Shown here: positions 11,895 to 40,050 of the stretch, piece after piece
Layout of the letters: each line of letters opens with the position of its first letter
How positions within the stretch are numbered: the first letter of the stretch is position 1
Notes under the pieces: model-generated
Databases searched by the model: none
Told to the model about the DNA's origin: nothing
Seen by the model: the letters and a program-made list of their open reading frames with translations, nothing else
Translations under genes and position numbers: made by a program
Assembly (NCBI GenBank): GCA_000004695.1
Contig: CM000150.2
Span: 480,001 to 544,000 of the forward strand
Direction: 5' to 3'
Source of the DNA: Dictyostelium discoideum
Taxonomy: Eukaryota
Length of the DNA: 64,000 nt

Positions 11895-12103
11895 ATGGGA
11901 TCAATAACACATAATAAAGGAAATCAAATTAAAAAGAAATTAGATTCATTTATTGGTATTTCAAATTGGGAATCATTATCAATTGAACATGATAATATTA
12001 ATCATCAATTAGATATTACATTACTTGCTATTATTAAAGATATTACAAATAAACCAGATTATTCTAGTTGTACTACTACTACTACTACTACTACTATTAC
12101 CAC

Positions 12104-12135
<32 letters not shown>

Positions 12136-13425: not shown

Positions 13426-13509
<84 letters not shown>

Positions 13510-14666
13510 CATTACAATTATTAAATTTTAAAATATTATTAAATAATCAAAATTTAATTAATAAATTAATGGAGGTAATGGTAAAGAGGTTAAGTGGTAA
13601 TTTAAGTATACCAAATGTGTTTATTAGAAATTGGGTAAAGTTATCAGTTGGTTCAGTGATTGTATTCTTTGGTATTAAATATTCTTATGATAATTTCGAT
13701 TCATTCAAACAATCTGCATTCGATATTAGGGATGCATTCATTAGATTCTATCATGAGCATTTGGAAGAGCCTCTATTGAATATTTGGAATGTGATTAGAT
13801 ACGATAAGAAGTCACTGCAATTGGCAGACCCTGCATCATTGCAATCTTCAATTGACTCATTGGGCAGAATGGTTATCGACTATAATATAGACAGAAACCA
13901 TCTCGATATCAATTCAACCGAAACTAGACAACACCTATTCCAATTGGCATCGCGTGGTGACATTTCATCCATTATGAAATCCTACGAATCTAATATCAGA
14001 TCGCCATTACAGAATATCCTATTCGGCGATATGATTAGATTAATATTAATTCAAATTCAAAAGGAGAAAGTTGACGTAGACAAAGCAATGGTTGCAATCG
14101 ATAAGTTACTCCAAGCCAACGAACTAAACTTCCAATTGCTCGCTGCTATACCCTCTGCTATCTTTTTGGCTTTATTAATTTGGCAAATTAAAAAGTTATT
14201 CACTAATCAAAAGAAAACTTTACCCTATTCACAATTAGTAATCTTTCAAACTTTAAGAAAAATTAATCGTACTTTAATTTTAAATAATACTCAAGATCAA
14301 CAAAATAATAATTTACCAAATTTCATTTCACCATTATTATTAACTCAAATTAATATTTTAAATTATTCAACAATTATTAATAATCAAGATAATAATAATA
14401 ATATTAATAATATTAATAATAATAATAATAATAATAATAATCAATTAATTAAAACTCAATTTAAACCATTTGAAAAATATGGTACAATTTTAATTTCAAC
14501 AAATAAATTAAGAAGTCATCAAAGATTTGTTAGAGAAAATACTGAAAGTCAATGGTTTAATCAAGATGTTCATGATTTAGAATCTGAGGCTTTATCAAAT
14601 CAAGATAAAATTCAAACTATAAATAGAATGTTTCAAACTTATTCTTTTTTAAAGAATATTAAATAA
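11895..14666 (+). CDS. Hypothetical 923-aa protein with long poly-Q/poly-N tracts and a conserved C-terminal domain ending in a hydrophobic segment
   Basis: Single long ORF from ATG 11895. Contains a (CAA)29 poly-Q tract and a complex C-terminal region (...[29 protein letters not shown]...[19 protein letters not shown]...). A weak resemblance to NCA2-type proteins is speculative. Confidence 0.55.
13425..13508 (+). repeat. (CAA)n microsatellite encoding a poly-Q of about 29 residues inside the 11895..14666 CDS
   Basis: Uninterrupted caa repeats seen directly in the sequence. Confidence 0.9.
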
Positions 14667-15109: not shown

Positions 15110-18317
<3,208 letters not shown>

Positions 18318-18394: not shown

Positions 18395-18480
18395 TTTATT
18401 TAATTTATTTAATTTATTTAATTTATTTAATTTATTTAATTTATTTATTTATTTTATTTATTTTTTATTTATTTAATTTA
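18395..18480. repeat. Minisatellite, about 9 copies of tttatttaa, between the convergent 3' ends of ireA and the ankyrin-kinase gene
   Basis: atttatttaatttatttaatttatttaa... seen directly. Lies in the 200-bp gap between the two stop codons. Confidence 0.7.
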
Positions 18481-18515
18481 TTTTTATATTTATTTATTTT
18501 TTTTTTTTTTTTTTT

Positions 18516-20338
18516 TTATTCATCAACTCCTATAAAACCTTTAGCATAATTAATTTTTAATTTTTCATTATAAACAAAAGGACTTACAAATGTTGAGTCT
18601 TTTGATTCTTTGTATTTTTTTTCAATCATTTTAGCTATTTTATGTTGTCTAATAACTTGATCAGAATAATCATCATCAATGTTTATCTTATTGAAAATTG
18701 AATTCCATTTTTCTTTTTTTGAATGGTAGATTGATTCCATTTCACTTAATTTTTCAAAAGCTTCACATGCACTTGGACGATCATAATCATTATGACTAAG
18801 CATTGAATAGATTAAATCACTTATTGGCAATGGAATTGAATCATGTAAAATTGGTCTAAGGAAATTGCGGACTCCATTATTTATTTGGGAATTTTCCCTA
18901 AGATTTCCAAAAGGATAAATATATTTCACTCCAATATATGGTATTGATGCACAAATTTCAAATAAAACAACACCCAATGCGAAAATATCAGTTTTAGTAT
19001 TTGCAACACTGTTGGAGGTGGCTTCAGGTGGTTGAAAACTTGATGTTCCAGCAAATTTCCTTAAGGTCTCTAGGTTTTCTGTTGAAAAAAAACGTGCAGT
19101 ACCAAAATCACAAACTTTAATTAAACCATTATCATTTACCAAAAAATTTTTAGATTTTAAATCTCTGTGAATTAAAGGACCATTTGGATTGGTGTGGATA
19201 TCATAAGCGCAATGAACCACACCAAAGGCATACCTAAAGAATTGATCAAATGATGTCATCTTTTCATTTCTTAAAACATCAAATAGAGTACCCTTTGAAC
19301 AATACTCTAAGAATAGGAATAAAGATTTTTCTTTATAGAAATAACCATATAAACCAACTGTTGATGGAGTTTGTGATAAGGACATTGATTCAACTTCTTT
19401 AACCACTTCATCTTTATTTGATTTATTTACTTCGCACTTTTTAACAGCACAGACTTTTTTTCATCTCCAATGGTATAATTTAATTTATAAACTTCACCAA
19501 ATGATCCTCTACCAATAAAATCGGTTAAAAGAGTACTATTAAAAGATTCAAATTGAAGGCATTTCTGTAATGGTGGTGCATCCTTTCCTTCAATCAATGG
19601 TTGAATTCTTGACATATTAACTGGAAAATAATGAAGTAAAAAACTATTAAATGATGGTGATTTTATAATATTCATTGAACGAATACCTAAAATTTCAAAC
19701 AATACAAATGTTCGAGCATGACAAAGGACCATAAAATTAGTAAAGGTTTTGATGATATTACTAATTTCAGTAACCATAATTAATAATGGACCATTTTTAT
19801 AAATCTCTTTCATCTTCATACCTGGGTCCCTCTTGATTGAACTATTTTTATCTTCAAGATATGGTTTTGCACCAAAAGCTAAAAGAATTTTGATAATATT
19901 TTCATCTTTAAGTTTTATTGCTAAATGAAGTGGAACAGATAATCTATTATTTCTTATGTTTGGATCTGCTCCACAAACCAATAATGCTGCAATAACTGGG
20001 GCACTTTCTGATTTTAAAGTTTTTAAGGCAATGTGAATTGCTGTATTACCATTATAGTATTGATAATTTAAATCAACATTCATTGCGGAGAGTTTACAAA
20101 AAAATGTAACATAATTTTTAAATAATTCAATTTTAGTTTGTTTTTCATCAAAGATTTTATTCCATTCCGATTCCATACTACTATTTGAATTACCCAATAT
20201 TGATGAGATTGATGGTAATGATTTTGGATTGATAATTGAATAATAAAGTATATTTGACTTTAAACTAGTTAAATTATATAAGTATCACAATATAAAATTA
20301 ATAAATAATATATTTATGTGTAATAAAATATTATATAG

Positions 20339-20388: not shown

Positions 20389-20958
20389 ATTATAAAAATA
20401 ATAATAATTATAAAAATAATAATAATAAACTTACTTTTCATTTTTATAAAAAACTTCTTGCAATAAATCAAGTTTTTCAATCAAAACTAATAAACTATTC
20501 AATTTATTGACGTCAGTTATTTTATCAATTGTTTCTCTAATTAAGTTAATAAATCCTTTGATAAAAACTGGGTTGAATCTGTTTTGATTTGAAATCAATA
20601 AATTGATTGCTTCTAATTCCAATCCATTTAAATAGTAGGTTTTAAATTTTTTAAATAATACCAATAGATTTAAATCTTTCTTAAATTCTTCCATTTTTTC
20701 ATTTTCCTTAAAAGATATTAATTTTCCATTAACTTTCACACCATTATCTTTTGTTTTTATATTGGTTTTATGAGTGATTTTAAATTTTTTTTTTTTATAA
20801 ATTATATAATCTTCAAACATATTTAAATCATCTGTTTTAGAACCAATAATTATCTGATCTTCATTAAAAGTTTCCTTTGGAGGAATTATTGACTTTAACT
20901 TGGATTTTAAATTATTTATACTTTTTTTTAATTCAAATTTATTTTTATCTTGATTTTC

Positions 20959-21033
<75 letters not shown>

Positions 21034-21192
21034 TTCATTATTATTATTTTGATTTTCCTTATTATTTTTATTATTATTAATTATATTTTGATTTTCATTA
21101 TTATTAATATTTTGACTATCATTATTATTTATATTTTGATTTTCATTATTATTTATATTTTGATTTTCATTATTATTTATATTTTGATTTTC

Positions 21193-21264
<72 letters not shown>

Positions 21265-21319
21265 ATTATTTTTATTATTAATATTATTTTTATTATTTTT
21301 ATTATTATTATTATTATTG

Positions 21320-21381
<62 letters not shown>

Positions 21382-21561
21382 ATTATTATTATTAATTCCA
21401 ATTATACTTTCATTTTTTTTTTTGTCTGGATCTATTACTAAACATTGGAGTAATATTTTTGATGAGATGAAATTATTTAATAATTCATAATTTTGGAAAT
21501 TTACCAAATTACCAAATTTTTTTTGGAAATTTTGGAAATCTTTTTCAATTTCCTTTTGCAT
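18516..21561 (-). CDS. N-rich ankyrin-repeat protein kinase (TKL-like), merged model complement(join(18516..20264,20435..21561)); a -1 frameshift in an A7 run at 19455..19461 breaks the kinase domain in this assembly
   Basis: ORF 20431..21561 ends ...EVFYKNE-AA|GTAAGT. After a 170-nt AT-rich intron ending AACTAG, the frame continues without a stop (NLKSNILYYSIINPKSLPSISSILGNSNSSMESEW...) into the ankyrin repeats (GNTAIHIALK..., SVPLHLAIKLKDENIIKILLAFGAKP). Kinase subdomains follow: GRGSFGEVY, VCAVKK (only if one extra A is present in the A7 run), HRDLKSKNFLV, DFGTAR. Confidence 0.6.
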
Positions 21562-22739: not shown

Positions 22740-22909
22740 CTTTTCATTTTGTTTAAACTCATTTTAATACAAACAAATAATAAAAATAAATAATTTAACC
22801 AAAAATAATATTGGTTTGTTATATTAATTATCTCTTTTTTTAAAAAATAGATACACCATTAATAATTTTAATAATAATTATTTATATTAAAATTATTATT
22901 GTTATTATT

Positions 22910-23400
22910 ATAGATTAGAATACAACATCACCAATAATAGTAATCATTCGTAGAAAATCACCAATTATGAAAGATTCAAAGTATTGAACATCTTGTTGTG
23001 ATTCCACCCTTCGTACTCCTGTTAAAACTCCAACTAAAGGTTCCACTACTACTGTTTCAGTAGTAACTAATACCCAACTATAGTGCTTCAATTACCGCTC
23101 CAACTGCTCCAAAACCAGTTTCTCGTAGTACAACCCGTAGCTTAACTAATGCACCCATCAATGCAGTCAATAGTGAAGATCTTCCATTAATCTAAACGGT
23201 AATTCAGCAAACCCCATAGTGTTACCTGTAGTACAGTAATATGGCCAGTAATTAGGCGAATCCCGTACTGAGGACTGTAATGTAGCCCTTACCGCAGCCT
23301 GCAATGCAGCCCATATTGAATCACCTTATCCTCATGAGTCATTTTAATTGGTATTCCTCTCATTATTTCCGCCCACTTCCCCAAAGTTATAATTAGTATT
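22910..23400. other. Island at about 42% G+C with decayed coding-like signal and no ORF of 60 aa or more on either strand; putative gene relic of unknown origin
   Basis: Base composition differs sharply from the flanks (under 20% G+C). Short open stretches encode S/T/P-rich (ASITAPTAPKPVSRSTTRSLTNAPINAVNSEDLPLI) and Cys-containing peptides, interrupted by stops in every frame. Confidence 0.3.
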
Positions 23401-23466
23401 TCAAAAAAAAAAATTCAAAAATAAACAACAAATAATTATTTAAAAATGTTTTTAAATTCTTAGGGT

Positions 23467-23525
<59 letters not shown>

Positions 23526-23985
23526 GTTTGGGAGTGTTAGTGTGCTATATTTTATTTGTTTTTTCAATTTTTTTTATTTAAAATAAAGTTAATGTTTTTG
23601 ATTTTTTTCAATATTTTTTTTGTCTAAATTTGGGGAAGTGGGTGTTTTTTCAAATAGTTATTGTTTTATGAGTGTTTTTAAGTGGTTGAGTGTGATGTAA
23701 TTTTTAATTTTTGTTATTTTAAAAAAATACAAATTGTTTTTGATAGTGTGTTGGTATGTGTTTTTATTTATTGTGTGTTTTTATTTGTTAAAATAAATAA
23801 AAAAAAAAAATAAAACATAATTTTTAATTTATTTTTTATTTTCATTTGTCAATATTAAAATTTACCAGTATAATAATTTATTATTTTTATCATTCTTGAA
23901 GACAGGAAAAAATAAAAAATTAATTATTTCTTTTATTATTTATTAAAAAAATAAAAAACTAAATCTGATTTTAAATAGTTTTACA

Positions 23986-26744
23986 ATGGAGAAAAAATTA
24001 TTAATAATAGTTATCATCTTTTTATTTTCAATTATCCAAGTATTTTGTAGAATTGATTCTAGTATGTATTAAACAAAAAAAAAAAACCAAAGTTTTAATA
24101 ATTTTTTAAAAAACATATTGTATTAATAATAAAAAACTTTAAATGAAAAATAGAAACATTTGTAATTTCAAATGAAACATTCCTATCATACCATTTTCCA
24201 GTTGGTAGTGAATATTTTTCATCATTAAATTTTGAACTTTTAGTAGGGCCATCATTTCAATTGGATTTTTAATGTATTACTTTCAATAGTACATTTTGTT
24301 TTTCAAAAATTGATCAAGAAAATAAAAAACAATTGTATGGTAAATCCATTACCTACTCAACACAAGAAACCTATGATTTGGATAAAAAAAGGCTACCAAC
24401 TCCAATAGTTTCTTCACCTTTCCAAAAACCAACAAAAGGTGGAACCTCAATTTTAAAAGGTACTTATTTAACATTTTTTGAAAAAAATTATTATGAAGTT
24501 ATCTACCCAGAAAAACAAACAATTGATATTTTGAATTCAAAATCATTATAATTCGATGCAACAAATGTTAAAGTTAATTGTCCACCTGGTTGTGGTTATC
24601 AAATAATTAAATGTGAGAATGGTAAATTATTTAATTTTAGTTATTCAAATCCATCAGTATTTGATTATAAAATAAATTCATCAAATATTATTGTAAATGG
24701 ATCTGATTTTTGTGATAGTTCTTATTCTTCAAATATTACAATTGATGGTGTTATCATTCCAAATTCAAATTATCAAAAAGATGAAGACTCAATTGTAATT
24801 ATTTATACTCAACAACATACAACCAAATCATTAATGAAAATAGAAACAAGCAATGTAACATCTGTTGAAATTGAAATTGTTTTTAAATCAGAACCATTAA
24901 TAATAAATTCAATTCCATATAGTAAAGGTGGTTTAATTATTTTAGAAGGTTTAAGATTATCTTCAAATACAAATAAAAACAATAATAACAATATAATTAT
25001 TAAAATTGGAAATACAACATGTTCAAATGCAATTTCAATATCAAATGAATCAATCACATGTAATTTAAATCCGGGTATAAATAAATCAGTTACTTTAAAT
25101 AATTTACCAGTTTCAGTTACAATTAATAATATTACAAATGAAAATACATTATTATTTAATTATGGTATGGTCAAATTAAATCCAAATAAATATAGTTTAC
25201 CAGATCGTGTTTTACAATTAAATGGTGATTGTCTCGGAAATTCAAATAGTACTATTGTTTATTTAAATGGAAAAGAAACATTATTAAATGATTTAAAAAT
25301 AAATAACCAAGAAACAACTTTATCATTTAAAATACCAGATGAATTTAAATCAAAATTAAATGTTTCAATCAAGGTAAATGATATTTTATCAAATGAAATT
25401 CAAATTGATATTTCATTTTATGCAAGTCATTCAAATGAACAACCAAGTACAAATGGTAAAACAAATATTATATTCACATTATATAATATTAAATCTGAAA
25501 ATTATAATAAAATACCATCAATTATTATAATTCCTGAACAAATTGTAATAAATGGTGTTTCAGTAAATTCACCAACCAATCAAGATGTTCATTCGTATTC
25601 ATTTTTAATTCCAGCTGGGTGTGGTAAAAAAGATATTCAAATTATAATTGGTAGTCAATCATGTTTGTCATCAATTACATACTTTGAACCAATTATTAAA
25701 AATTGTTTAGTATCAGGTTTTGATGGTACAAATGGAAATATAATTTGTGATGGTAGTTTTGGTAATAAAGATTATTTAATTAAATCATCTGTACTATTTT
25801 CAAATGATGAAATTGTACCACCATCAATCAATAGTACAACATTTTCGTTCCCTCTAATATCAGGTTATCACAGTGATGATTTAATTTTTCAAATGTGCGG
25901 TGTTCAAAGTAAACCATTTAAATTAAACATCTCACCATCATTAAAAGGAATCAATCACAGTCAAATGGAAACATTAGGTGGTAAATTTTACATTCTTGGT
26001 GAATTCTTTAGTGCAAATATAAATTGTAGTGTATTTTGCAATGATAAAGAATATGAAAAACATTTTGAAAACTCAAAGACGATTTCATTCGATTTACAAA
26101 TTCCAGGTCCAAATGATATTACATGTAATTATACATTTGATAATGGAAAAAATACTGGTGATTTTAAGATTGAATATCCTTTACCATTAATAGAAAATAC
26201 GAGCTCAATAAATGTAAATGGTGGAAATTTAACAATTTATGGTAAAAACTTTTATAATATTTCAAATATCAAAGTTGAAGTTGATAATCAATTAAAATGT
26301 AATAATATTGAATTTATTAATTTAAATAGTTTAACCTGTTTCTTACCACCATTTAATGAAACAAGAAAACAACCATTATTTAATGATCAAAAACTATTAT
26401 TAAATTCATCAACAACTATTTTTAGCAAAAAATTATTATTAAATGTTACATTTGAAAGTAAAACATGGAGTGGATATATTTTTCAATATTCAAAAGAAGA
26501 AATAAAAAATAATGGTACAAGTGAAAATTCAACCAATGATATTTTAAATCATGAAAAAAATAATAATAATCAGAAAGATGGAAGTAGTTTAAGTAAAAAA
26601 AGTATAATATTATTATCAATATTATTACCTGGTTTTATTATTTTAATAGTTTCTTTAACAATTGTTATTCTTGTAATTAAAAAAAATAAAACAAAACATA
26701 GTAAAAATATGTCACCAAAAGAGAAAGAATTAATGAAACAATAA
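23986..26744 (+). pseudogene. tgr-like IPT/TIG membrane glycoprotein, array copy 1, pseudogene: in-frame TAA at 24270..24272 and 24549..24551, plus a Trp-to-Cys change
   Basis: Same exon structure as copies 2-4 (exon 1 23986..24061, exon 2 from 24154). LDFECIT is replaced by LDF*CIT (gaa to taa) and SLSFDAT by SL*FDAT (tca to taa). IKWENG is replaced by IKCENG. The distal 636 codons (24834..26744) remain open. Confidence 0.75.
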
Positions 26745-27059
26745 TAGTAGCAATAAAAATAATTTAATAATTATTAAATTATTAATTTATTATTTATATT
26801 TAATAATTAATATTATTTGTAATAGGGAAATGGGCATCTTCAAATATTTTTTATTTCTCTGATCATAAATTTGAACCTGACCGATTTTTTTCCAAATTTC
26901 AATTTCACATTCTCCCAACTCAACAAAAAGATATTACTTAAAAAACTATAAAATTATATCGAATAACAATTTTTAAAAAATAGTAATAATAAAAAAAAAA
27001 AAGAAACATTCAATAATAATAATGATTGAAAAGATGTTTTTAAATTGTTGATTGTTTAG

Positions 27060-27137
27060 AAGTTTGTATTTTTTTTTGAAAATCCAATTTTAACTTTAAA
27101 ATACAATTTAATGTTTTTGATAGTGTGTTTTTTATTT

Positions 27138-27171
<34 letters not shown>

Positions 27172-27660
27172 AATGTGTGTTAGTGTACTATGTTTTATTA
27201 GTTATGTGAGTTTGTTGTGTTTTTTCAATTTATTCTATTTAAAATAAAGATAATGTTTTCGATAGTGTGTTATTTTTCAATATTTGTCTAAGTTTGGAGA
27301 AGTGGGTGTTTTTTTCAAATAATTATTGTTTTATGAGTGTTTTTAAGTGGTTAAGTGTGATGAAATTTTTTATTTTTTGTTATTTTAAAAAAATACAAAG
27401 TGTTTTTGATAGTGTGTTAGTGTGTGTTTTTATTTAATTTATTTTTATTCAATTTTTTTAATTATTTTTTAATATTGTATAAATAAATAATAAAAAAAAA
27501 TAAAACATTATAATTTTTAATTTATTTTTTATTTTCATTTGTCAATATTAAAATTTACCAGTATAATAATTTATTATTTTTATCATTCACCAACAAATAA
27601 TAAAAAAAATTAATTATTTGTTTTAAAATATTAAAAAATTAAATCTGATTTTAAATAATT
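27060..27660 (+). promoter_or_regulatory. Conserved 5' module of the tandem units, present at about 23460..23985, 27060..27665, 30740..31340 and 34600..35176, containing repeated GT-rich boxes (putative G-box/GBF-type developmental elements)
   Basis: Blocks such as ggagaagtgggtgttttttt, gtttttgatagtgtgttagtgtgtgttttt and gtggttaagtgtgatg recur in the same order before each copy, embedded in otherwise A/T-only DNA. The TTTTGATAGTGTG motif occurs about three times per unit. Confidence 0.35.
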
Positions 27661-27665
27661 TTACA

Positions 27666-30414
27666 ATGGAGAAAAAATTACTAATAATAGTTATCGTCTT
27701 TTTATTTTCAACTATCCAAGTATTTTGTAGAATTGATGATAGTATGTATAAAACAAAAAAACAAAACTTTATCATTTTTCAAAAAACATATTGTATTAAT
27801 AAATGAAAACTTTAAATGAAAAATAGAAACATTTGTAATTTCAAATGAAACATACCTATCATACCATTTTCCTGTTGATAGTGAATACTTTTCATCATTA
27901 AATTTTGAACATTATGAAGGACCATCATTTCAATTGGATTTTGAATGTATTACTTTCAATGGCACAATTTGTTTTTCACAAATTTATCCAGAAATTAAAA
28001 AAAAAATTTATGGTACGTCAATTTCATATTCAACACAAAAAACATACAAATTAGATCAAGAATTGTTTCCAACTCCAATAGTTTCCTCACCTTTCCAACC
28101 TCCAACAAAAGGTGGAATCTCAATTTTAAAAGGTACTTTTTTAACATTTTCGGAAAAAACCTTTTATCAAGTTATCTACCCAAAAAAGCAAAAGATTTTT
28201 ATTTTAGATTCAGAATCGTTATCGTTCGATGCAACAAATTTTAAAGTTAATTGTCCACCTGGTTGTGGTTATCAAATAATTAAATGGGATAATGGTAATT
28301 TATTTAATTTTAGTTATTCAAATCCATCAATATCGGTTGTTAAAATAAATCCATCAAATATTATTGTAAATGGATCTGATTTTTGTGATAGTTCTTATTC
28401 TTCAAATATTACAATTGATGGAGTTATCATTCCAAATTCAAATTATGAAAAAGATGAAGACTCAATTGTAATTATTTATACTCAACAACACACAATCAAA
28501 TCATTAATGAAAATTGAAACAAGCAATGTAACATCTGTTGAAATTGAAATTGTTTTTAAACCAGAACCTTTATTAATAAACTCGGTTCCATATAGTAAAG
28601 GTGGTTTATTAATTTTAGAAGGTTTAAGATTATCTTCAAATACAACAAATAAAAATAATAACAATAATAATATAATTATTAAAATTGGAAATATTACATG
28701 TTCAAACGCAATTTCAATCTCAAATGATTCAATCACATGTAATTTAAATCCGGGTTTTAATAATAAATCAGTTACTTTAAATAATTTACCAGTTTCAGTT
28801 ACAATTAACAATATTACAAATGAAAATAAATTATTATTTAATTATGGCATCGTTAAATTAAATCCAAATAAATATAGTTTACCAGATCGTGTTTTACAAT
28901 TAAATGGTGATTGTCTCGGAAATTCAAATGGTACTATAGTTTATTTAAATGGAAAAGAAACATTATTAAATGATTTAAAAATAAATAACCAAGAAACAAC
29001 TTTATCATTTAAAATACCAGATGAATTTAAATCAAAATTAAATGTTTCAATCAAGGTAAATGATATTTTATCAAATGAAATTCAAATTGATATTTCATTT
29101 TATGCAAGTCATTCAAATGAACAACCAAGTACAAATGGTAATACAAATATTATATTCACATTATATAATATTAAATCTGAAAATTATAATAAAATACCAT
29201 CAATTATTATAATTCCTGAACAAATTGTAATAAATGGTGTTTCAGTAAATTCACCAACCAATCAAGATGTTCATTCGTATTCATTTTTAATTCCAGCTGG
29301 GTGTGGTAAAAAAGATATTCAAATTATAATTGGTAGTCAATCATGTTTGTCATCAATTACATACTTTGAACCAATTATTAAAAATTGTTTAGTATCAGGT
29401 TTTGATGGTACAAATGGAAATATAATTTGTGATGGTAGTTTTGGTAATAAAGATTATTTAATTAAATCATCTGTACTATTTTCAAATGATGAAATTATAC
29501 CACCATCAATCAATAGTACAACATTTTCGTTCCCGCTTATATCAGGTTATCACAGTGATGATTTAATTTTTCAAATGTGTGGTGTTCAAAGTAAACCATT
29601 TAAATTAAACATCTCACCATCATTAAAAGGAATCAATCAAAGTCAAATGGAAACATTAGGTGGTAAATTTTACATTCTTGGTGAATTCTTTAGTGCAAAT
29701 ATAAATTGTAGTGTATTTTGCAATGATAAAGAATATGAAAAAAAATTTGAAAACTCAAAGACGATTTCATTCGATTTACAAATTCCAGGTCCAAATGATA
29801 TTACATGTAATTATACATTTGATAATGGAAAAAATACTGGTGATTTTAAGATTGAATATCCTTTACCATTAATAGAAAATACGAGTTCAATAAATGTAAA
29901 TGGTGGAAATTTAACAATTTATGGTAAAAACTTTTATAATGTTTCAAATATCAAAGTTGAAGTTGATAATCAATTAAAATGTAATAAAATTGAATTTATT
30001 AATTTAAATAGTTTAACCTGTTTCTTACCACCATTTATTGAAACATTATTTAATGATCAAAAACTATTATTAAATTCATCAACAACTATTTTTAGTAAAA
30101 AATTATTATTAAATGTTACATTTGAAAGTAAAACATGGAGTGGATATATTTTTCAATATTCAAAAGAAGAAATAAAAAATAATGATACAAGTGAAAATTC
30201 AACCAATGATATTTTAAATCATGAAAAAAATAATAATAATCAGAAAGATGGAAGTAGTTTAAGTAAAAAAAGTATAATATTATTATCAATATTATTACCT
30301 AGTTTTATTATTTTAATAGTTTCTTTGGCAATTGTTATTCTTGTAATTAAAAGAAATAAAACAAAACATAGTAAAAATATGTCATCAAAAGAGAAAGAAT
30401 TAATGAAACAATAA
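27666..30414 (+). CDS. tgr-like IPT/TIG type-I membrane glycoprotein, array copy 2, join(27666..27741,27827..30414)
   Basis: Signal peptide MEKKLLIIVIVFLFSTIQVFC in exon 1 (GTATGT...ATAG intron, phase 1). At least three IPT/TIG-like modules (e.g. PYSKGGLLILEGLRLSS...IIIKIGNITCSNAISISNDSITCNLNPG; YPLPLIENTSSINVNGGNLTIYGKNFYNVSNIKVEVDNQLKC...LTCFLPPF). More than 50 N-x-S/T sequons. C-terminal TM SIILLSILLPSFIILIVSLAIVILVI with a short basic tail. Lacks 4 aa (FIETLFNDQ) relative to copies 1, 3 and 4 (FNETRKQPLFNDQ). Confidence 0.8.
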
Positions 30415-30807
30415 TAGTAGCAATAAAAATAATTTAATAATTATTAAATTATTAATTTATTATTTACATTTAATAATTAATATTATTTGTAATAGGGAAA
30501 TGGGCATCTTCAAATATTTTTTATTTCTCTGATCATAAATTTGGACCTGACCGATTTTTTTCCAAATTTCAATTTCACATTCTCCCAACTCAACAAAAAG
30601 ATATTACTTAAAAAACTATAAAATTATATCAAATAACAATTTTTAAAAAATAGTGATAATAAAAAAAAAAAAGAAACATTCAATAATAATAATAATTGAA
30701 AAGATGTTTTTAAATTGTTGATTGTTTAGAAGTTTGTATTTTTTTTTGAAAATCCAATTTTAACTTTAAAATACAATTTAATGTTTTTGATAGTGTGTTT
30801 TTTATTT

Positions 30808-30840
<33 letters not shown>

Positions 30841-31340
30841 AATGTGTGTTAGTGTACTATGTTTTATTAGTTATGTGAGTTTGTTGTGTTTTTTCAATTT
30901 ATTCTATTTAAAATAAAGATAATGTTTTCGATAGTGTGTTATTTTTCAATATATTTTTGTTGTCTAAGTTTGGAGAAGTGGGTGTTTTTTTCAAATAATT
31001 ATTGTTTTATGAGTGTTTTTAAGTGGTTAAGTGTGATGAAATTTTTTATTTTTTGTTATTTTAAAAAAATACAAAGTGTTTTTGATTGTGTGTTAGTGTG
31101 TGTTTTTATTTAATTTATTTTTATTCAATTTTTTTAATTATTTTTTAATTTTGTATAAATAAATAATAAAAAAAATAAAACATAATAATTTTTAATTTAT
31201 TTTTTATTTTCATTTGTCAATATTAAAATTTACCAGTATAATAATTTATTATTTTTATCATTCACCAACAAATAATAAAAAAAATTAATTATTTGTTTTA
31301 AAATATTAAAAAATTAAATCTGATTTTAAATAATTTTACA

Positions 31341-34098
31341 ATGGAGAAAAAATTACTAATAATAGTTATCGTCTTTTTATTTTCAACTATCCAAGTATTT
31401 TGTAGAATTGATGATAGTATGTATAAAACAAAAAAACAAAACTTTATCATTTTTCAAAAAACATATTTTATTAATAAATGAAAACTTTAAATGAAAAATA
31501 GAAACATTTGTAATTTCAAATGAAACATACCTATCATACCATTTTCCTGTTGGTAGTGAATACTTTTCATCATTAAATTTTGAACATTATGAAGGACCAT
31601 CATTTCAATTGGATTTTGAATGTATTACTGGCAATGGTACAGTTTGTTTTTCACAAATTTATCCAGAAATTAAAAAAAAATTTTATGGTACGTCAATTTC
31701 ATATTCAACACAAAAAACATACAAATTAGATCATGAATTGTTTCCCACTCCAATAGTTTCCTCACCTTTCCGACCACCAACAAAAGGTGGAATCTCAATT
31801 TTAAAAGGTACTTATTTAACATTTTCTGAAAGACTTTCCTATTATGAAGTTATCTACCCAAAAAAACAAAAGATTGTGATTTCAGATTCAGAATCATTAT
31901 CATTCGATGCAACAAACGTTAAAGTTAATTGTCCACCTGGTTGTGGTTATCAAATAATTAAATGGGAGAATGGCCAATTATTTAATTTTAGTTATTCAAA
32001 TCCATCAGTATTTGATTATAAAATAAATCCATCAAATATTATTGTAAATGGATCTGATTTTTGTGATAGTTCTTATTCTTCAAATATTACAATTGATGGT
32101 GTTATCATTCTAAATTCAAACTACCAAAAAGATGAAGACTCAATTGTAATTATTTATACTCAACAACACACGACCAAATCATTAATGAAAATTGAAACTA
32201 GCAATGTAACTTCTGTTGAAATTGAAATTGTTTTTAAACCAGAACCATTAATTATAAATTCAATTCCATATATTAAAGGTGGTTTAATTATTTTAGAAGG
32301 TTCAAGATTATCTTCAAATACAAATAAAAACAATAATAATAATATAATTATTAAAATTGGAAATATTACATGTTCAAACGCAATTTCAATCTCAAATGAA
32401 TCAATCACATGTAATTTAAATCCGGGTATATATAATAAATCAGTTCCCTTAAATAATTTACCAGTTTCAGTTACAATTAACAATATTACAAATGAAAATA
32501 CATTATTATTTAATTATGGTATGGTCAAATTAAATCCAAATAAATATAGTTTACCAGATCGTGTTTTACAATTAAATGGTGATTGTCTTGGAAATTCAAA
32601 TAGTACCATAGTTTATTTAAATGGAAAAGAAACATTATTAAATGATTTAAAAATAAATAACCAAGAAACAACTTTATCATTTAAAATACCAGATGAATTT
32701 AAATCAAAATTAAATGTTTCAATCAAGGTAAATGATATTTTATCAAATGAAATTCAAATTGATATTTCATTTTATGCAAGTTATTCTAATGAACAACCAA
32801 GTACAAATGGTAATACAAATATAATATTCACATTATATAATATTAAATCTGAAAATTATAATAAAATACCATCAATTATTATAATTCCTGAACAAATTGT
32901 AATAAATGGTGTTTCAGTAAATTCACCAACCAATCAAGATGTTCATTCGTATTCATTTTTAATTCCAGCTGGGTGTGGTAAAAAAGATATTCAAATTATA
33001 ATTGGTAGTCAATCATGTTTGTCATCAATTACATACTTTGAACCAATTATTAAAAATTGTTTAGTATCAGGTTTTGATGGTACAAATGGAAATATAATTT
33101 GTGATGGTAGTTTTGGTAATAAAGATTATTTAATTAAATCATCTGTACTTTTTTCAAATGATGAAATTGTACCACCATCAATCAATAGTACAACATTTTC
33201 GTTCCCACTAATATCAGGTTATCACAGTGATGATTTAATTTTTCAAATGTGCGGTGTTCAAAGTAAACCATTTAAATTAAACATCGCACCATCTTTGAAA
33301 AGAATCGATCAAAGTCAAATGGAAACATTGGGTGGTAAATTTTACATTCTTGGCGAATTCTTTGGTGTAAATATAAATTGTAGTGTATTTTGCAATGATA
33401 AAGAATATGAAAAAAAATTTGAAAACTCAAAGACGATTTCATTCGATTTACAAATTCCAGGTCCAAATGATATTACATGTAATTATACATTTGATAATGG
33501 AAAAAATACTGGTGATTTTAAGATTGAATATCCTTTACCATTAATAGAAAATACGAGTTCAATAAATGTAAATGGTGGAAATTTAACAATTTATGGTAAA
33601 AACTTTTATAATGTTTCAAATATCAAAGTTGAAGTTGATAATCAACTAAAATGTAATAATTTTGAATTTATTAATTTAAATAGTTTAACCTGTTTCTTAC
33701 CACCATTTAATGAAACAAGAAAACAATCATTATTTAATGATCAAAAACTATTATTAAATTCATCAACAACTATTTTTAGCAAAAAATTATTATTAAATGT
33801 TACATTTGAAAGTAAAACATGGAGTGGATATATTTTTCAATATTCAAAAGAAGAAATAAAAAATAATGATACAAGTGAAAATTCAACCAATGATATTTTA
33901 AATCATGAAAAAAATAATAATAATAATCAGAAAGATGGAAGTAGTTTAAGTAAAAAAAGTATAATATTATCAATATTATTACCTGGTTTTATTATTTTAG
34001 TAGTTTCTTTAACAATTGTTATTATTGTAATTAAAAGAAATAAAACAAAACATAGTAAAAATATGTCATCAAAAGAGAAAGAATTAATGAAACAATAA
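31341..34098 (+). CDS. tgr-like IPT/TIG type-I membrane glycoprotein, array copy 3, join(31341..31416,31502..34098)
   Basis: Same architecture as copy 2. Intact ORF with scattered substitutions clustered in the N-terminal domain. One-residue shorter TM (SIILSILLPG...). Confidence 0.8.
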
Positions 34099-35176
34099 TA
34101 GTAGCAATAAAAATAATTTAATAATTATTAAATTATTAAATTATTATTTATATTTAATAATTAATATTATTTGTAATAGGGAAATGGATGTATCTTCAAA
34201 ATATTTTTTATTTCTCTGATCATAAATTTGAACCTGACCGATTTTTTTCCAAATTTCAATTTCACATTCTCCCAACTCAACAAAAAGATATTACTTAAAA
34301 AACGATAAAATTATATCAAATAACAATTTTTAAAAAATAGTAATAAAAAAAAAAAAATTAAAAAGAAACATTCAATAATAATAAAAATTAAAAAAAATGT
34401 TTTTAAATTGTTGATTGTTTAGAAGTTTGTATTTTTTTTTGAAAATCCAATTTTAACTTTGGAGAAGTGGGTGTGTTTTTAATTTTTTTTTTTTGTAAAT
34501 CTAATTATAACTTAGGAGAAGTGGGTGTTTTTTTTTTTTTTTTTTTTTATGAAAGTGTGTTAATGTGTGATGTTTTGATTTGTTAAATGATTTTTTCTCT
34601 TTTAATTCAATTTGTTTTTTTTTAAAATACAATTTAATGTTTTTGATAGTGTGCATTTTTTATTTGTTTTTTTTTTTTTTTTTTTTGGAATGTGTGTTAG
34701 TGTACTATGTTTTATAAGTTATGTGAGTTTGTTGTGTTTTTTCAATTTATTTTATTTAAAATAAAGATAATGTTTTCGATAGTGTGTTATTTTTCAATAT
34801 ATTTTTGTTATCTGAGTTTGAAGAAGTGGGTGTTTTTTCAAATAATTATTGTTTTATGAGTGTTTTTAAGTGGTTAAGTGTGATGAAATTTTTTATTTTT
34901 GTTATTTTAAAAAAAAATACAAAGTTTTTTTGATAGTGTGTTAGTGTGTGTTTATTTAATGTATTTTTATTCAATTTTTTTAATTATTTTTTAATTATAT
35001 TTGAATAAATAATAAAAAAAATAAAACATTAAAATATTTAATTTTTTTTTTTTTTTCATTTGTCAATATTAAAATTTACCAGTATAATTTATTATTTTTA
35101 CCATTCACCAATAAAAAAAAAAATTATTATTTATTTTAAAAATAAAAAACTAAATCTGATTTTAAATAGTTTTACA

Positions 35177-38100
35177 ATGGAGAAAAAATTATTAATAATA
35201 GTTATCATCTTTTTATTTTCAACTATCCAAGTATTTTGTCAAATTGATTATAGTATGTATAAAACAAAAAAACAAACTTTTAATAATTTTTTAAAATATA
35301 TTGTATTAATAATTGAAAACTTTAAATTAAAAATAGAAACATTTGTAATTTCAAATGAAACATACCTATCATACCATTTTCCAGTTGGTAGTGAATATTT
35401 TTCATCATTAAATTTTGAACGTTTCGTAGGTCCATCATTTCAACTGGATTTTGAATGTATTACTTTCAATGGTACAGTTTGTTTTTCTCAAATTAATCAA
35501 GAAAATAAAAAACAATTGTATGGTACATCCATTACCTATACAACAAAAGTAACTATTAGTTTGTATAAGAATAACCTTCCAACTCCAATAGTTTCTTCAC
35601 CTTTCCAACCTCCAACAAAAGGTGGAATCTCAATTTTAAAAGGTACCTATTTAACATTTTCTGAAAGACTTTCCTATTATGAAGTTATCTACCCAAAAAA
35701 ACAAAAGATTGTGATTTCAGATTCAGAATCATTATCATTCGATGCAACAAACGTTAAAGTTAATTGTCCACCTGGTTGTGGTTATCAAATAATTAAATGG
35801 GAGAATGGCCAATTATTTAATTTTAGTTATTCAAATCCATCAGTATTTGATTATAAAATAAATCCATCAAATATTATTGTAAATGGATCTGATTTTTGTG
35901 ATAGTTCTTATTCTTCAAATATTACAATTGATGGTGTTATCATTCCAAATTCAAACTACCAAAAAGATGAAGACTCAATTGTAATTATTTATATTCAACA
36001 ACACACAACCAAATCATTATTGAAAATAGAAACAAGCAATGTAACATCTGTTGAAATTGAAATTGTTTTTAAACCAGAACCATTAATTATAAATTCAATT
36101 CCATATAGTAAAGGTGGTTTAATTATTTTAGATGGTTCAAGATTATCTTCAAATACAAATAAAAACAATAATAATATAATTATTAAAATTGGAAATATTA
36201 CATGTTCAAACGCAATTTCAATCTCAAATGAATCAATCACATGTAATTTAAATCCGGGTATATATAATAAATCAGTTGCCTTAAATAATTTACCAGTTTC
36301 AGTTACAATTAATAATATTACAAATGGAAATACATTATTATTTAATTATGGTATGGTCAAATTAAATCCAAATAAATATAGTTTACCAGATCGTATTTTA
36401 CAATTAAATGGTGATTGTCTCGGAAATTCAAATAGTACTATTGTTTATTTAAATGGAAAAGAAACATTATTAAATGATTTAAAAATAAATAACCAAGAAA
36501 CAACTTTATCATTTAAAATACCAGATGAATTTAAATCAAAATTAAATGTTTCAATCAAGGTAAATGATATTTTATCAAATGAAATTCAAATTGATATTTC
36601 ATTTTATGCAAGTCATTCTAATGAACAACCAAGTACAAATGGTAATACAAATATTATATTCACATTATATAATATTAAATCTGAAAATTATAATAAAATA
36701 CCATCGATTATAATTATTCCTGAACAAATTGTTATTAATGGTGTTTCAGTAAATTCACCAACCAACCAAGATGTTCATTTGTATTCATTTTTAATTCCAG
36801 CTGGGTGTGGTAAAAAAGATATTCAAATTATAATTGGTAGTCAATCATGTTTGTCATCAATTACATACTTTGAACCAATTATTAAAAATTGTTTAGTATC
36901 AGGTTTTGATGGTACAAATGGAAATATAATTTGTGATGGTAGTTTTGGTAATAAAGATTATTTAATTAAATCATCTGTACTTTTTTCAAATGATGAAATT
37001 GTACCACCATCAATCAATAGTACAACATTTTCGTTCCCTCTAATATCAGGTTATCACAGTGATGATTTAATTTTTCAAATGTGCGGTGTTCAAAGTAAAC
37101 CATTTAAATTAAACATCTCACCATCATTAAAAAGAATCAATCAAAGTCAAATGGAAACATTGGGTGGTAAATTTTACATTCTTGGTGAATTCTTTAGTGC
37201 AAATATAAATTGTAGTGTATTTTGCAATGATAAAGAATATGAAAAACATTTTGAAAACTCAAAGACGATTTCATTCGATTTACAAATTCCAGGTCCAAAT
37301 GATATTACATGTAATTATACATTTGATAATGGAAAAAATACTGGTGATTTTAAGATTGAATATCCTTTACCATTAATAGAAAATACGAGTTCAATAAATG
37401 TGAATGGTGGAAATTTAACAATTTATGGTAAAAACTTTTATAATGTTTCAAATATCAAAGTTGAAGTTGATAATCAATTAAAATGTAATAATATTGAATT
37501 TATTAATTTAAACAGTTTAACCTGTTTCTTACCACCATTTAATGAAACAAGAGAGCAATCATTATTTAATGATCAAAAACTATTATTAAATTCATCAACA
37601 ACTATTTTTAGCAAAAAATTATTATTAAATGTTACATTTGAAAGTAAAACATGGAGTGGATATATTTTTCAATATTCAAAAGAAGAAATAAAAAATAATG
37701 GTACAAGTGAAAATTCAAGTAATGATATAATAGATCATGAAAAAAACAATAATACTACAAAAAATGGTAAAGGCGGTATCAATTTAAGTAAAGAAAGTAA
37801 AATAATAATTTCTGTAGTCTTACCTGGTGTTATTATTTTAATAATTTTATCGGTAGTAGTAATCTATCGTATTAGAATAAATAGAATTACACGAAATACA
37901 TATGTGAAAAAAATTAATGAAATGAAAACAATAACACCAGAAGAGAAACGAGATGAAATAGATGAATCAGATGAAATTAAAAAAAAACTTGATATTGAAA
38001 TGTCAGAATTAAGATCCAATCTATTCATACACTCAATCAGTTATACTAACACACTCAAAGAACAACAAATGGAAAGGGATCAAATCAATAAAAGTCCAAG

Positions 38101-38377
38101 TCTACAAATTCAACCACAAAATAATCAATTGAATATAATTAATAATGGTGAAGGTTCAAGTCAACAAATTCAACCACAAAGTAATCAATCAAATATTATT
38201 AATAATGATGAGGGTTCAAGCCACCAATTTCAACCTGAAATTAATCAATCCAATACAATTAATAATAGTGAAGGTTCAAGTCAACAAATTCAACCACAAA
38301 ATAATCAATTGAATATAATTAATAATGATGTGGGTTCAAGTCACCAATCTAAGCAAAATGATAGTACTGGTTGCTGA
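35177..38377 (+). CDS. tgr-like IPT/TIG type-I membrane glycoprotein, array copy 4, join(35177..35252,35337..38377), with a divergent TM and a roughly 200-aa cytoplasmic tail carrying three EGSSQQIQPQNNQLNIINN-type repeats
   Basis: Ectodomain is collinear with copies 2 and 3 up to ...YSKEEIKNNGTSENS. It then diverges (KNGKGGINLSKESKIIISVVLPGVIILIILSVVVIY...) into a long tail with an acidic stretch and three 19-aa repeats. The 3' flank is also unrelated to those of units 1-3. Confidence 0.75.
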   Translation: MEKKLLIIVIIFLFSTIQVFCQIDYSMYKTKKQTFNNFLKYIVLIIENFKLKIETFVISNETYLSYHFPVGSEYFSSLNFERFVGPSFQLDFECITFNGTVCFSQINQENKKQLYGTSITYTTKVTISLYKNNLPTPIVSSPFQPPTKGGISILKGTYLTFSERLSYYEVIYPKKQKIVISDSESLSFDATNVKVNCPPGCGYQIIKWENGQLFNFSYSNPSVFDYKINPSNIIVNGSDFCDSSYSSNITIDGVIIPNSNYQKDEDSIVIIYIQQHTTKSLLKIETSNVTSVEIEIVFKPEPLIINSIPYSKGGLIILDGSRLSSNTNKNNNNIIIKIGNITCSNAISISNESITCNLNPGIYNKSVALNNLPVSVTINNITNGNTLLFNYGMVKLNPNKYSLPDRILQLNGDCLGNSNSTIVYLNGKETLLNDLKINNQETTLSFKIPDEFKSKLNVSIKVNDILSNEIQIDISFYASHSNEQPSTNGNTNIIFTLYNIKSENYNKIPSIIIIPEQIVINGVSVNSPTNQDVHLYSFLIPAGCGKKDIQIIIGSQSCLSSITYFEPIIKNCLVSGFDGTNGNIICDGSFGNKDYLIKSSVLFSNDEIVPPSINSTTFSFPLISGYHSDDLIFQMCGVQSKPFKLNISPSLKRINQSQMETLGGKFYILGEFFSANINCSVFCNDKEYEKHFENSKTISFDLQIPGPNDITCNYTFDNGKNTGDFKIEYPLPLIENTSSINVNGGNLTIYGKNFYNVSNIKVEVDNQLKCNNIEFINLNSLTCFLPPFNETREQSLFNDQKLLLNSSTTIFSKKLLLNVTFESKTWSGYIFQYSKEEIKNNGTSENSSNDIIDHEKNNNTTKNGKGGINLSKESKIIISVVLPGVIILIILSVVVIYRIRINRITRNTYVKKINEMKTITPEEKRDEIDESDEIKKKLDIEMSELRSNLFIHSISYTNTLKEQQMERDQINKSPSLQIQPQNNQLNIINNGEGSSQQIQPQSNQSNIINNDEGSSHQFQPEINQSNTINNSEGSSQQIQPQNNQLNIINNDVGSSHQSKQNDSTGC

Positions 38378-38709
38378 TAAATAATTAAAATAATAAAAAA
38401 AAAATAAAAAAATAAAAAAATAAAAAAATAGTAATAATATAATCCTTTTTTAAAATAATAAATTATAAACAATATTAATTTTTAATTTTTAAAATTATTA
38501 TTTTAGTATTTTCTTTTTACACCTTCAAAGCATAGGTACTTTTTAAAATTGAGATTTTTTTGTTTTTTTGTGTTGGAAAGGAGCAAAATTTGAAAAGATC
38601 TTTCTAAAAATAGAATTAATTTGAATGACAAAGTTTTTTTTTTTTTTTTTTTAAGATTTTTTTTTTTTTTTTTTTTTTATCATTTTTTTTTTTATTTTTA
38701 AAATCAAAA

Positions 38710-40050
38710 ATGAAAAACAGCTCATCAATGTTAAAAGGAGTTAAATCATTTATTGGTAGTGGAATTTATACAAACAAACCAATATATGATGTAGCAATTG
38801 TTGGTGGGGGTATAGTTGGATTAGCAACAGGTAGAGAATTATTAAAGAGGAATCCAAAATTAAAAATTGTAATACTTGAAAAGGAGAATGAAATTGCACC
38901 ACATCAATCATCACATAATAGTGGTGTAATTCATTGTGGAATTTATTATAAACCAGGATCATTAAGAGCTAAACTTTGTACAAAAGGTTCAAAGTTAATG
39001 TATGACTATTGTAATGAAAATCAAATAAACTATGAAAATTGTGGTAAATTAATTGTTGCAACTAAAAAAGAAGAATTTCAACAATTAGAACAACTCTATA
39101 AAAGAGGTATTGAAAATGGTGTACCAAATATAAAACTATTAGAATCAAAAGAACAACTATTATCAATTGAACCATTTATAAATGGTGGTTTACGTGCAAT
39201 TCATACACCATCAACTGGAATCATTGATTATAAAGAAGTCTCAAAATCATTTGGTAATGATATTACTGAAAAGTTTGGAAAAGATTCAAAATCTGAAATT
39301 AAATTAAATTTTAATGCAAAAAATTTTAAATATAATTCAAATGATAAATTATTATTAATTTCAACTGGTGATGATGATGATGATGAAGAACAACAACAAT
39401 CAATTTTAACCAAATATTCAATTGTATGTGGTGGCATGAATAGTGATAGAATTGCAAAAGTTGCATATGGTAATGATGAACCATCGATTGTACCATTTCG
39501 AGGTAGTTTTTTACAATTTAAACCAGAATTTAGACATTTGATTAAAGGTAATGTTTATCCATTACCAAATGCTTCATTCCCATTTTTAGGTGTTCATTTC
39601 ACAAAGAGGATTAATGGTGAAGTTTGGTTAGGTCCAAATGCGGTATTATCATTCGACAGAGAGGGATACAAATTCACAGATTTCAATCTACACGATACTA
39701 TTGATTTAATTAAAAATCCTGGTTTATTTAAATTGGCCAAAAAACATTGGAAATATGGCTTAGGTGAATTGTATAGAGATTTTAATAAAGATCATTTCAT
39801 TCAACTTTTAAAACCATATATGCCAAATATCACCGTGGACATGTTAGAATATGGAGGTAGTGGTGTTAGAAGTCAAGCAATTTCGAAATCTGGTGATTTA
39901 ATTGAAGATTTCATTTTTGATACACCATCAGATGTTCCAATAATACATGTAAGAAATTCACCTTCTCCTGCTGCAACCTCTTCACTTGCAATTGCAATTG
40001 AAATTGTAGATTTAGCTCAAAATAATTTTAAAAATTTAAATTCTTTATAA
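38710..40050 (+). CDS. l2hgdh: L-2-hydroxyglutarate dehydrogenase, mitochondrial (FAD-dependent), single exon, 446 aa
   Basis: DVAIVGGGIVGLATGREL...HQSSHNSGVIHCGIYYKPGSLRAKLC...CGKLIVA...VPFRGSFLQFKP...FPFLGVHFT...WLGPNAVL...GVRSQA...HVRNSPSPAATSSLAIA is collinear with human L2HGDH, including the FAD-binding GxGxxG. Confidence 0.85.
   Translation: MKNSSSMLKGVKSFIGSGIYTNKPIYDVAIVGGGIVGLATGRELLKRNPKLKIVILEKENEIAPHQSSHNSGVIHCGIYYKPGSLRAKLCTKGSKLMYDYCNENQINYENCGKLIVATKKEEFQQLEQLYKRGIENGVPNIKLLESKEQLLSIEPFINGGLRAIHTPSTGIIDYKEVSKSFGNDITEKFGKDSKSEIKLNFNAKNFKYNSNDKLLLISTGDDDDDEEQQQSILTKYSIVCGGMNSDRIAKVAYGNDEPSIVPFRGSFLQFKPEFRHLIKGNVYPLPNASFPFLGVHFTKRINGEVWLGPNAVLSFDREGYKFTDFNLHDTIDLIKNPGLFKLAKKHWKYGLGELYRDFNKDHFIQLLKPYMPNITVDMLEYGGSGVRSQAISKSGDLIEDFIFDTPSDVPIIHVRNSPSPAATSSLAIAIEIVDLAQNNFKNLNSL

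Follow-up and report, generated by a model that had tools for sequence, protein, structure and literature searches.

A tandem array of four related genes was analyzed in a 64-kilobase (kb) stretch of Dictyostelium discoideum chromosome 1 (strain AX4). This stretch is called the window here; its G+C content is 13–27%, and all coordinates are given in window numbering. The array is the already annotated tgrO cluster, in which tgrO1 is accompanied by two further intact paralogues and a pseudogene. It consists of four direct units of 3.67–3.84 kb each, arranged head to tail (Table 1), and the array of four units of ~3.7 kb that an initial annotation of this DNA had proposed is therefore real. The start-to-start distances between successive units were 3670–3684, 3672–3684 and 3832–3846 nucleotides (nt). 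Within each unit, a poly-T tract is followed by an upstream region of ~0.5 kb, a two-exon gene and a 3′ flank of ~0.37 kb. Exon 1 is 76 nt long in each unit and encodes MEKKLLIIV...VFC, and the intron of 84–92 nt has the form GTATGT...AAATAG. When unit 2 was compared with the other three units by blastn, identities of 91.6–96.2% were obtained with the intergenic DNA counted, and the MAFFT alignment of the four units gave 92.8–96.9% over aligned columns; any two units differ at 101–234 positions. No further tgrO copies or fragments were found by tblastn across the window. All four genes lie on the plus strand, and no minus-strand open reading frame (ORF) of at least 150 amino acids was found inside the array.

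Table 1. Positions of the tgrO array, its genes and sequence elements, and neighboring features in the window.
Feature	Position	Strand	Details
Whole tandem array	23466..37886	+	Repeat spacing; blastn matches of unit 2 in the window; MAFFT alignment of all four units
Copy 1, tgrO pseudogene	23986..26744	+	Exon 1 23986-24061, intron 24062-24153, exon 2 24154-26744; 888 codons; short tail
Copy 2, tgrO1	27666..30414	+	Exon 1 27666-27741, intron 27742-27826, exon 2 27827-30414; 887 amino acids
Copy 3	31341..34098	+	Exon 1 31341-31416, intron 31417-31501, exon 2 31502-34098; 890 amino acids; short tail
Copy 4	35177..38377	+	Exon 1 35177-35252, intron 35253-35336, exon 2 35337-38377; 1038 amino acids
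Q/N-rich repeat in the copy 4 tail	38097..38347	+	60 nt (20 amino acids) x 4.2; Tandem Repeats Finder; multiple offset blastn matches in the ACTFIW assembly (L001)
Motif GGRGAAGTGGGTG, reference occurrence	27296..27308	+	7 matches against 0.03 expected by chance
G+C island left of the array	22881..23400	-	36.5% G+C
ORF with periodic coding repeat	20431..21561	-	376 amino acids
Ankyrin-repeat protein kinase gene	18516..20197	-	
IRE1-like kinase/RNase gene	16152..18317		
NCA2-domain protein gene	11895..14666		
DAO-family FAD oxidoreductase gene	38710..40050		Directly downstream of the array
RasGEF gene	54965..56707		

The three intact genes could be matched to D. discoideum AX4 database entries. 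Copy 2 is letter-for-letter identical to UniProt Q55GI8 (TGRO1_DICDI, Tiger protein O1; XP_647196.2), copy 3 is an exact match to Q55GI7 (XP_647197.1) and copy 4 to Q55GI6 (XP_647198.2). The lengths in Table 1 replace the ~830 amino acids first given for these proteins, a figure that arose because only the long ORF had been read, so that the first exon and the beginning of the second had been missed. Likewise, 25–33 N-X-S/T sequons were counted per copy, not the more than 50 N-glycosylation sites that had been reported. The variant peptides quoted as examples of divergence, namely NPSISVVKINPSN, NPSVFDYKINPSN, FIETLFNDQ and FNETRKQPLFNDQ, were all present, as were the differences in poly-N length. 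At the protein level, copy 3 is 93% and copy 4 is 88% identical to TgrO1; the statement that the copies are more than 90% identical thus does not hold for all of them.

By sequence inspection, every copy has a hydrophobic signal-like N-terminus (MEKKLLIIVIVFLFSTIQVFC) and a single hydrophobic segment of 22–26 residues near the C-terminus, that is, the signal sequence and the single transmembrane (TM) segment in type I topology that characterize the Tgr family. In copy 2 the TM segment spans residues 841–866 (30271–30348) and is followed by a tail of 21 amino acids. A tail of the same length is found in copies 1 and 3, so the predicted signal peptide, single TM segment and short tail stood for copies 1–3. 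In copy 4, by contrast, the TM segment (37802–37867) is followed by a repeat-rich cytoplasmic tail of 169 amino acids, in line with the earlier remark that one copy has a new tail.

One copy had also been described as dead, and this is copy 1, in which two in-frame TAA stops interrupt the reading frame at codon 65 (GAA to TAA, 24270–24272) and codon 158 (TCA to TAA, 24549–24551). The coding sequence (CDS) of copy 1, including both stops, is 100% identical in an independent assembly of the AX2 lineage (L002, GCA_054883475.1), and the stops are therefore not sequencing errors. In the automatic annotation of that assembly, copy 1 (10001–12759 of L002, P0007) appears as a protein of 836 amino acids; this is evidently an annotation artefact, spliced around the two stops, which matters when intact tgr genes are counted. 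The same assembly also bears on whether the four copies could be an artefact of assembly, with a smaller real array having been expanded or mis-joined. Assembly errors classically arise where tandem units are nearly identical, and the tgr preprint notes cross-mapping of short reads among tgr paralogues (bioRxiv 10.1101/2025.10.22.684067). However, L002, which was built independently from long reads of the same lab-strain lineage, has all four genes in unchanged order; the CDS of copies 1–3 and the 1572 nt that it covers of copy 4 are 100% identical, and the units can be told apart individually by the differing positions given above. An assembly artefact was considered and rejected, its probability being next to nil.

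The domain content of the proteins was analyzed with Pfam. TgrO1 was matched in three stretches by PF24612 (Ig_TgrO1, TgrO1-like Ig-like domain; E 1.2e-39). For PF01833 (TIG), no match was obtained for TgrO1 at E ≤ 10, nor for the ORFs of copies 2 and 4 at E ≤ 1, and none of the array proteins scored above the gathering threshold of this family. PF01833 was matched at the corresponding positions in 13 of the 22 homologues, and a paralogue with 61% identity (P0011) matched it at residues 712–772 (E 6e-15). Because these homologues carry the domain, the TIG signal has simply fallen below threshold by decay in the tgrO subfamily. A lack of significant TIG/IPT hits had been named in advance as evidence against a Tgr assignment. 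Taken literally, this is the result for PF01833, but to count it as a refutation would be unfair, given the strong match to the sister model PF24612 and the presence of PF01833 at equivalent positions in homologues. The IPT/TIG modules first proposed were thus not recovered under that Pfam name, although Ig-like modules are present.

In the AlphaFold model of TgrO1 (22 homologues; mean predicted local distance difference test score 75.8), residues 28 to ~802 are all-beta and form about nine sandwich modules, and a helix is predicted at residues 839–874. When the model was compared with the PDB by Foldseek, multi-Ig ectodomains were retrieved, including plexin A1/A4, MET, titin and the Ig strings of cytokine receptors. 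These matches are consistent with the Tgr family but not specific to it. Animal plexins and MET, which are among the top Foldseek matches, share with the tgrO proteins a string of IPT-type Ig-like sandwiches in the ectodomain of a type I receptor; unlike them, the tgrO proteins are without sema, PSI, kinase or GAP domains, the identity is only ~9–13%, and the likeness is at the fold level only. The repeated Ig-like (E-set) ectodomain of the Tgr family is present, and each gene codes for a type I membrane glycoprotein with a signal peptide, about nine Ig-like (E-set/TIG-type) sandwiches, a TM helix and a tail.

Homology to the founding members of the family was also detected. A word-indexed homologue search with the family alignment did not reach TgrB/C; the link to TgrC came from an exhaustive HMMER search and from a further search seeded with a distant match. 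In the HMMER search with the family profile against 1.8 billion proteins, 366 cluster representatives were obtained at E ≤ 1e-3. All of the matches that could be named were dictyostelid, and ten distant ones were designated "hypothetical" or "IPT/TIG domain-containing". Among the matches was P0102 (E 1.3e-37), a TgrC-type protein whose relatives are named as TgrC1 alleles, LagC and tgrD1. By BLASTP, TgrO1 and LagC/TgrC1 (AAF72532) were 23% identical over 485 amino acids (E 5e-8) in a collinear alignment, and PF24612 was present in LagC too. The array proteins are distant homologues of TgrC1/LagC. Together with the reference-genome annotation of copy 2 as Tiger protein O1, the membership of the array genes in the Tgr family, which the initial annotation had put forward, is established both by annotation and by test.

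Alignment of the four units by MAFFT revealed that the identity between them is mosaic. Copies 2 and 3 hardly differ in the region upstream of the gene and over the first ~400 nt of its coding sequence, where copy 4 is distinct, whereas from ~28.1 kb (in copy 2 coordinates) copy 3 is almost identical to copy 4. A central stretch of ~1.1 kb, including ~300 nt without differences, is nearly identical in all four copies, and at the 3′ end copies 1–3 are alike while copy 4 is wholly divergent. The breakpoint in copy 3 was located by the maximum chi-square method on informative sites with 2000 permutations. It lies near 28139 (chi-square 81.7, a value matched by none of the 2000 permutations). To the left of this point copy 3 sides with copy 2 at 81 sites versus 5, and to the right it sides with copy 4 at 57 versus 19. 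Copy 3 is a chimera, with a copy-2-like 5′ end and a copy-4-like sequence from about codon 130 onward.

The copies were also compared between genomes. In the center of the gene, paralogues within a genome differ by 1.0–2.5%, versus 5–6% between AX4 and ACTFIW and ~13% relative to D. citrinum. The first ~700 nt and the 3′ end retain cross-genome orthology: over the initial 700 nt, the nearest relation of AX4 copy 4 is to ACTFIW copy a (6.4%), and at the 3′ end copies 1–3 group with ACTFIW copy a and copy 4 with ACTFIW copy b. This pattern bears the signature of a core in concerted evolution through gene conversion, laid over an older short-tail/long-tail duplication, with lineage-specific gain and loss.

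Several elements recur with the units. The motif GGRGAAGTGGGTG was found singly at 23632, 27296 and 30972, ~355–370 nt ahead of the ATG, and three times before copy 4 (34461, 34515 and 34820); an inverted occurrence lies just left of the array (23370–23382, minus strand). In L001, L002 and L004 it likewise lies upstream of tgrO genes, and it could be a promoter element or the mark of a repeat junction, both being candidate roles suggested by its position. The spacer ahead of copy 4 is ~160 nt longer than the other spacers, and at 34432–34794 it contains local tandem duplications (a 54-nt unit repeated 2.2 times and a 137-nt unit repeated 2.0 times) that triplicate the motif. Poly-T runs of 42–57 nt occupy the equivalent position of each unit (23468–23524, 27128–27170 and 30798–30839), the first of them coinciding with the left edge of the array; they may have served as substrate for the unequal exchanges that built it.

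The syntenic interval between the ankyrin-repeat protein kinase gene and the DAO-family oxidoreductase gene was then compared in six recently deposited Dictyostelium assemblies (L001–L006). Four tgrO copies are present at the site in the AX4/AX2 lineage (the window and L002). Two are present in ACTFIW (L001; 885 amino acids with a short tail and 1117 amino acids with a long tail) and two in D. citrinum (L005), and a single copy was found in ACTFIR (L006; 1137 amino acids, long tail) and in ACTFIZ (L003). ACTFIY (L004) has one near-complete copy and fragments in a rearranged context beside a DDE transposase gene. In this assembly, designated "cf. discoideum", the tgrO locus is fragmented (5727–12201 and 17988–19434) and contains an inverted piece (7562–7816); a DDE_3 transposase gene, not the DAO gene, follows it, so the locus has been rearranged. 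In ACTFIW, an extra tgr-like fragment that has no counterpart in AX4 lies upstream of both tgrO genes (L001 5179–5478); it is 56% identical to TgrO1 residues 599–748 and is probably the remnant of a lost copy. The sole constant among the syntenic loci of L001, L003, L005 and L006 is the long-tail gene adjoining DAO, and the long-tail copy 4 is probably the ancestral copy. Its tail is longer in other isolates, as the lengths of the ACTFIW and ACTFIR proteins indicate. A comparison of isolates for copy number had been suggested at the outset, and the number does vary, from one to four at the syntenic site across the isolates and D. citrinum. Duplication, loss and gene conversion drive the evolution of the array, and the earlier description of an actively evolving, recombining locus is borne out, the chimeric copy 3 included.

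Nonsynonymous (dN) and synonymous (dS) divergence and their ratio (dN/dS, omega) were calculated by the Nei–Gojobori method. The other available genomes labeled "D. discoideum" are those of diverged tropical isolates, as is indicated in the text accompanying Table 1 of a published study (PMC12745789). Between paralogues, dN/dS was 0.31–0.49, with 0.41–0.49 in the N-terminal third (dN up to 0.10) and 0.17–0.32 in the middle. Between orthologues (copy 4 versus ACTFIR and ACTFIW), it was 0.41–0.44 overall and 0.43–0.48 in the N-terminal third, and values of ~1.1 were reached only in the low-complexity TM/tail region. For copy 2 and its ACTFIW counterpart, omega was 0.39 overall and 0.22 in the center. 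The orthologue dS of tgrO (0.14–0.16) was ~1.5–2 times that of the flanking genes (0.05–0.11), and dN was 0.056–0.070 for tgrO versus 0.004–0.006 for DAO, a rate of protein evolution about ten times that of DAO. A gene-wide signal of diversifying selection was not seen in this coarse dN/dS analysis across diverged tropical isolates. The protein identity of 85–88% to the other isolates was at first considered as a sign of hyper-polymorphism, a reading rejected after the flanks were used as a control, since divergence is seen everywhere: nucleotide identity to the other isolates was 90–93% for tgrO, 97–98% for DAO and 86–96% for the other flanks.

An explanation in terms of neutral turnover has to be weighed against these data. 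According to it, the extra short-tail copies are by-products of unequal crossing-over on their way to becoming pseudogenes, and only the ancestral long-tail copy 4 keeps a function. One of the three short-tail copies is indeed already dead, ACTFIR and ACTFIZ have the long-tail gene alone at the locus, and the long-tail form is the only one found in all syntenic loci examined. Moreover, the dN/dS of the pseudogene relative to its paralogues is the same as that of the intact copies, so that conversion can imitate constraint. However, the ACTFIW short-tail form is intact, and its 3′ end differs by 4.5–5.1% from AX4 copies 1–3 versus 6.6–7.0% from the long-tail form. Because this 3′ end is orthologous to that of copies 1–3, the short-tail form has survived since before the split between AX4 and ACTFIW (flank dS 0.05–0.11), and the omega values for copy 2 and its ACTFIW counterpart are low as well, above all in the center. 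Neutral decay of all short-tail copies was accordingly judged unlikely.

The initial annotation had gone further and regarded the array as a candidate locus of kin or cell–cell recognition. In the TgrB1/TgrC1 allorecognition system, the two genes form a head-to-head pair of two subfamilies with a shared promoter (bioRxiv 10.1101/2025.10.22.684067), and TgrC1 (LagC, gp150) is the ligand of the pair. TgrC1 and TgrO1 resemble each other in length (888 versus 887 amino acids), in type I topology, in the collinear string of Ig-like/TIG modules (23% identity over 485 amino acids), in PF24612 and in the short cytoplasmic tail, which is shared by tgrO copies 1–3. On the other hand, tgrC1 lies head to head with tgrB1, its expression peaks at ~9 h of development and its polymorphism is extreme (bioRxiv 10.1101/2025.10.22.684067; PMC12745789), whereas the four tgrO genes belong to one subfamily and lie unpaired and head to tail on one strand of chromosome 1, with omega below 0.5 and without a detectable PF01833 match. 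The array belongs to the tgrA/H/I/O group of Tgr subfamilies (PMC12745789); the variation from one to four copies fits the published description, and nothing contradicts it. A further parallel is the tgrA cluster, in which unpaired paralogues also lie in tandem on the same strand, while the majority of tgr clusters are made up of pairs arranged head to head. TgrA bears a different subfamily name, and the preprint calls it the one cluster of this kind, yet the tgrO array is also same-stranded (bioRxiv 10.1101/2025.10.22.684067).

It was asked how far the array could be a genuine second allorecognition locus, with N-terminal domains kept diverse by diversifying or balancing selection. Membership in the same superfamily as TgrC1 speaks for it, as do the concentration of substitutions and small indels in the N-terminal third, the escape of this region from central homogenization with copy-4-like and other lineages persisting across isolates, the differing copy number among isolates and the roughly tenfold protein divergence relative to DAO. 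Against it stand the missing head-to-head partner of a second subfamily and an omega that stays at 0.41–0.49 in the N-terminal third. Since dS is raised in that third too, the differences cluster there because conversion fails to reach it, and not through selection. In addition, tgrO orthologues of AX4 and ACTFIR are ~89% identical, versus ~74% for the TgrC-type proteins of these strains, and the tgrO proteins thus appear to evolve more slowly, although the orthology of the TgrC-type proteins is uncertain. According to two published studies (PMC12745789; bioRxiv 10.1101/2025.10.22.684067), tgr genes other than tgrB1/C1 are mostly expressed at low levels in clonal development, and many genes of the group that includes tgrO show low developmental expression and are of unknown function. 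No paper naming tgrO1 was found in the library searched. A second allorecognition locus is therefore improbable. The step from a Tgr-like, recombining array to a recognition locus is not supported: the TgrB1/TgrC1 layout is missing, dN/dS is 0.31–0.49 between paralogues and 0.41–0.44 between orthologues, and isolates diverge at the locus to an extent similar to that in the flanks. No sign was found in this analysis that tgrO is itself a kin-recognition locus.

A more speculative arrangement would have the short-tail and long-tail paralogues form a self-contained, ligand/receptor-like contact system from a single subfamily, by analogy with the short tail of TgrC1 and the signaling tail of TgrB1. 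The conversion-resistant N-terminal domains would then provide strain specificity, and the homogenized center would act as a stalk. If this were true, the variation between isolates from one to four copies would serve to adjust a second level of adhesion or self-recognition, but such a system is considered a long shot.

The array is very probably what its annotation implies, an annotated tgrO cluster of TgrC1-related surface proteins that is reshuffled by gene conversion and is not a determinant of kin discrimination. According to this explanation, the long-tail gene beside the DAO gene is the conserved and probably ancestral copy, and the short-tail form arose before the AX4/ACTFIW split. In the AX4/AX2 lineage the short-tail form was then amplified to three copies, one of which is now dead. 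Within each genome, the central ~1.3 kb is kept nearly identical by gene conversion or by unequal crossing-over, while the first ~700 nt and the 3′ end keep older differences that span lineages. Through their Ig-like domains, the tgrO proteins may serve in adhesion or contact at the cell surface, any signaling would presumably go through the long-tail copy, and the role in kin discrimination would belong to the head-to-head tgrB1/tgrC1 pair on another chromosome, not to tgrO.

Several points weigh against this explanation. The dN/dS of the pseudogene copy 1 (0.35–0.45) is the same as that of the intact copies, so that conversion from a constrained donor can mask decay, and a dN/dS below 1 is no proof that each copy is functional. 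The faster N-terminal third leaves room for site-specific diversifying selection that a coarse test would miss. The isolates compared are diverged tropical ones (flank dS as given above). Finally, the role in adhesion is proposed from the fold and the family of the proteins.

The surroundings of the array were also inspected. The island immediately left of it contains long but broken reading frames and is conserved in ACTFIW and ACTFIR with ~79–80% identity at the nucleotide level. No Pfam family matched it, and it was considered as a tgr fragment and rejected, as it has no similarity to tgr; from its sequence it looks like the relic of a decayed gene. The kinase exon of the ankyrin-repeat protein kinase gene gave a dN/dS of 0.76–0.93 between AX4 and the tropical isolates (L001 and L006), which exceeds that of tgrO and may reflect either an alignment effect or a truly fast-evolving gene. 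The 376-amino-acid ORF beside it consists mostly of a periodic coding repeat of 9–15 nt (63 overlapping copies) and belongs to no Pfam family; repeats related to it cross-match several other genes in the compared loci. The NCA2-domain, IRE1-like, RasGEF and DAO-family genes listed in Table 1 are ordinary flanking genes. Rfam and tRNA scans of the whole window returned nothing.

The locus is already annotated and the behavior of its subfamily has been published, so that it is already known. The mosaic pattern of concerted evolution of this particular array and the dichotomy of short and long tails are not described in the main texts of the tgr papers cited here. The tgr family serves as a model for the discrimination of kin from non-kin in microbes and for how recognition genes generate diversity, and this 14-kb array displays the birth-and-death and gene-conversion dynamics that recent papers report family-wide. 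At the level of the locus, the chimeric copy, the homogenized core with conversion-resistant ends, the probably ancestral long-tail copy and the one to four copies across isolates are added. No new kind of system is revealed. The value of the array is that of a documented example and of a reminder that genes resembling TgrB1/C1 do not thereby share the function of that pair.

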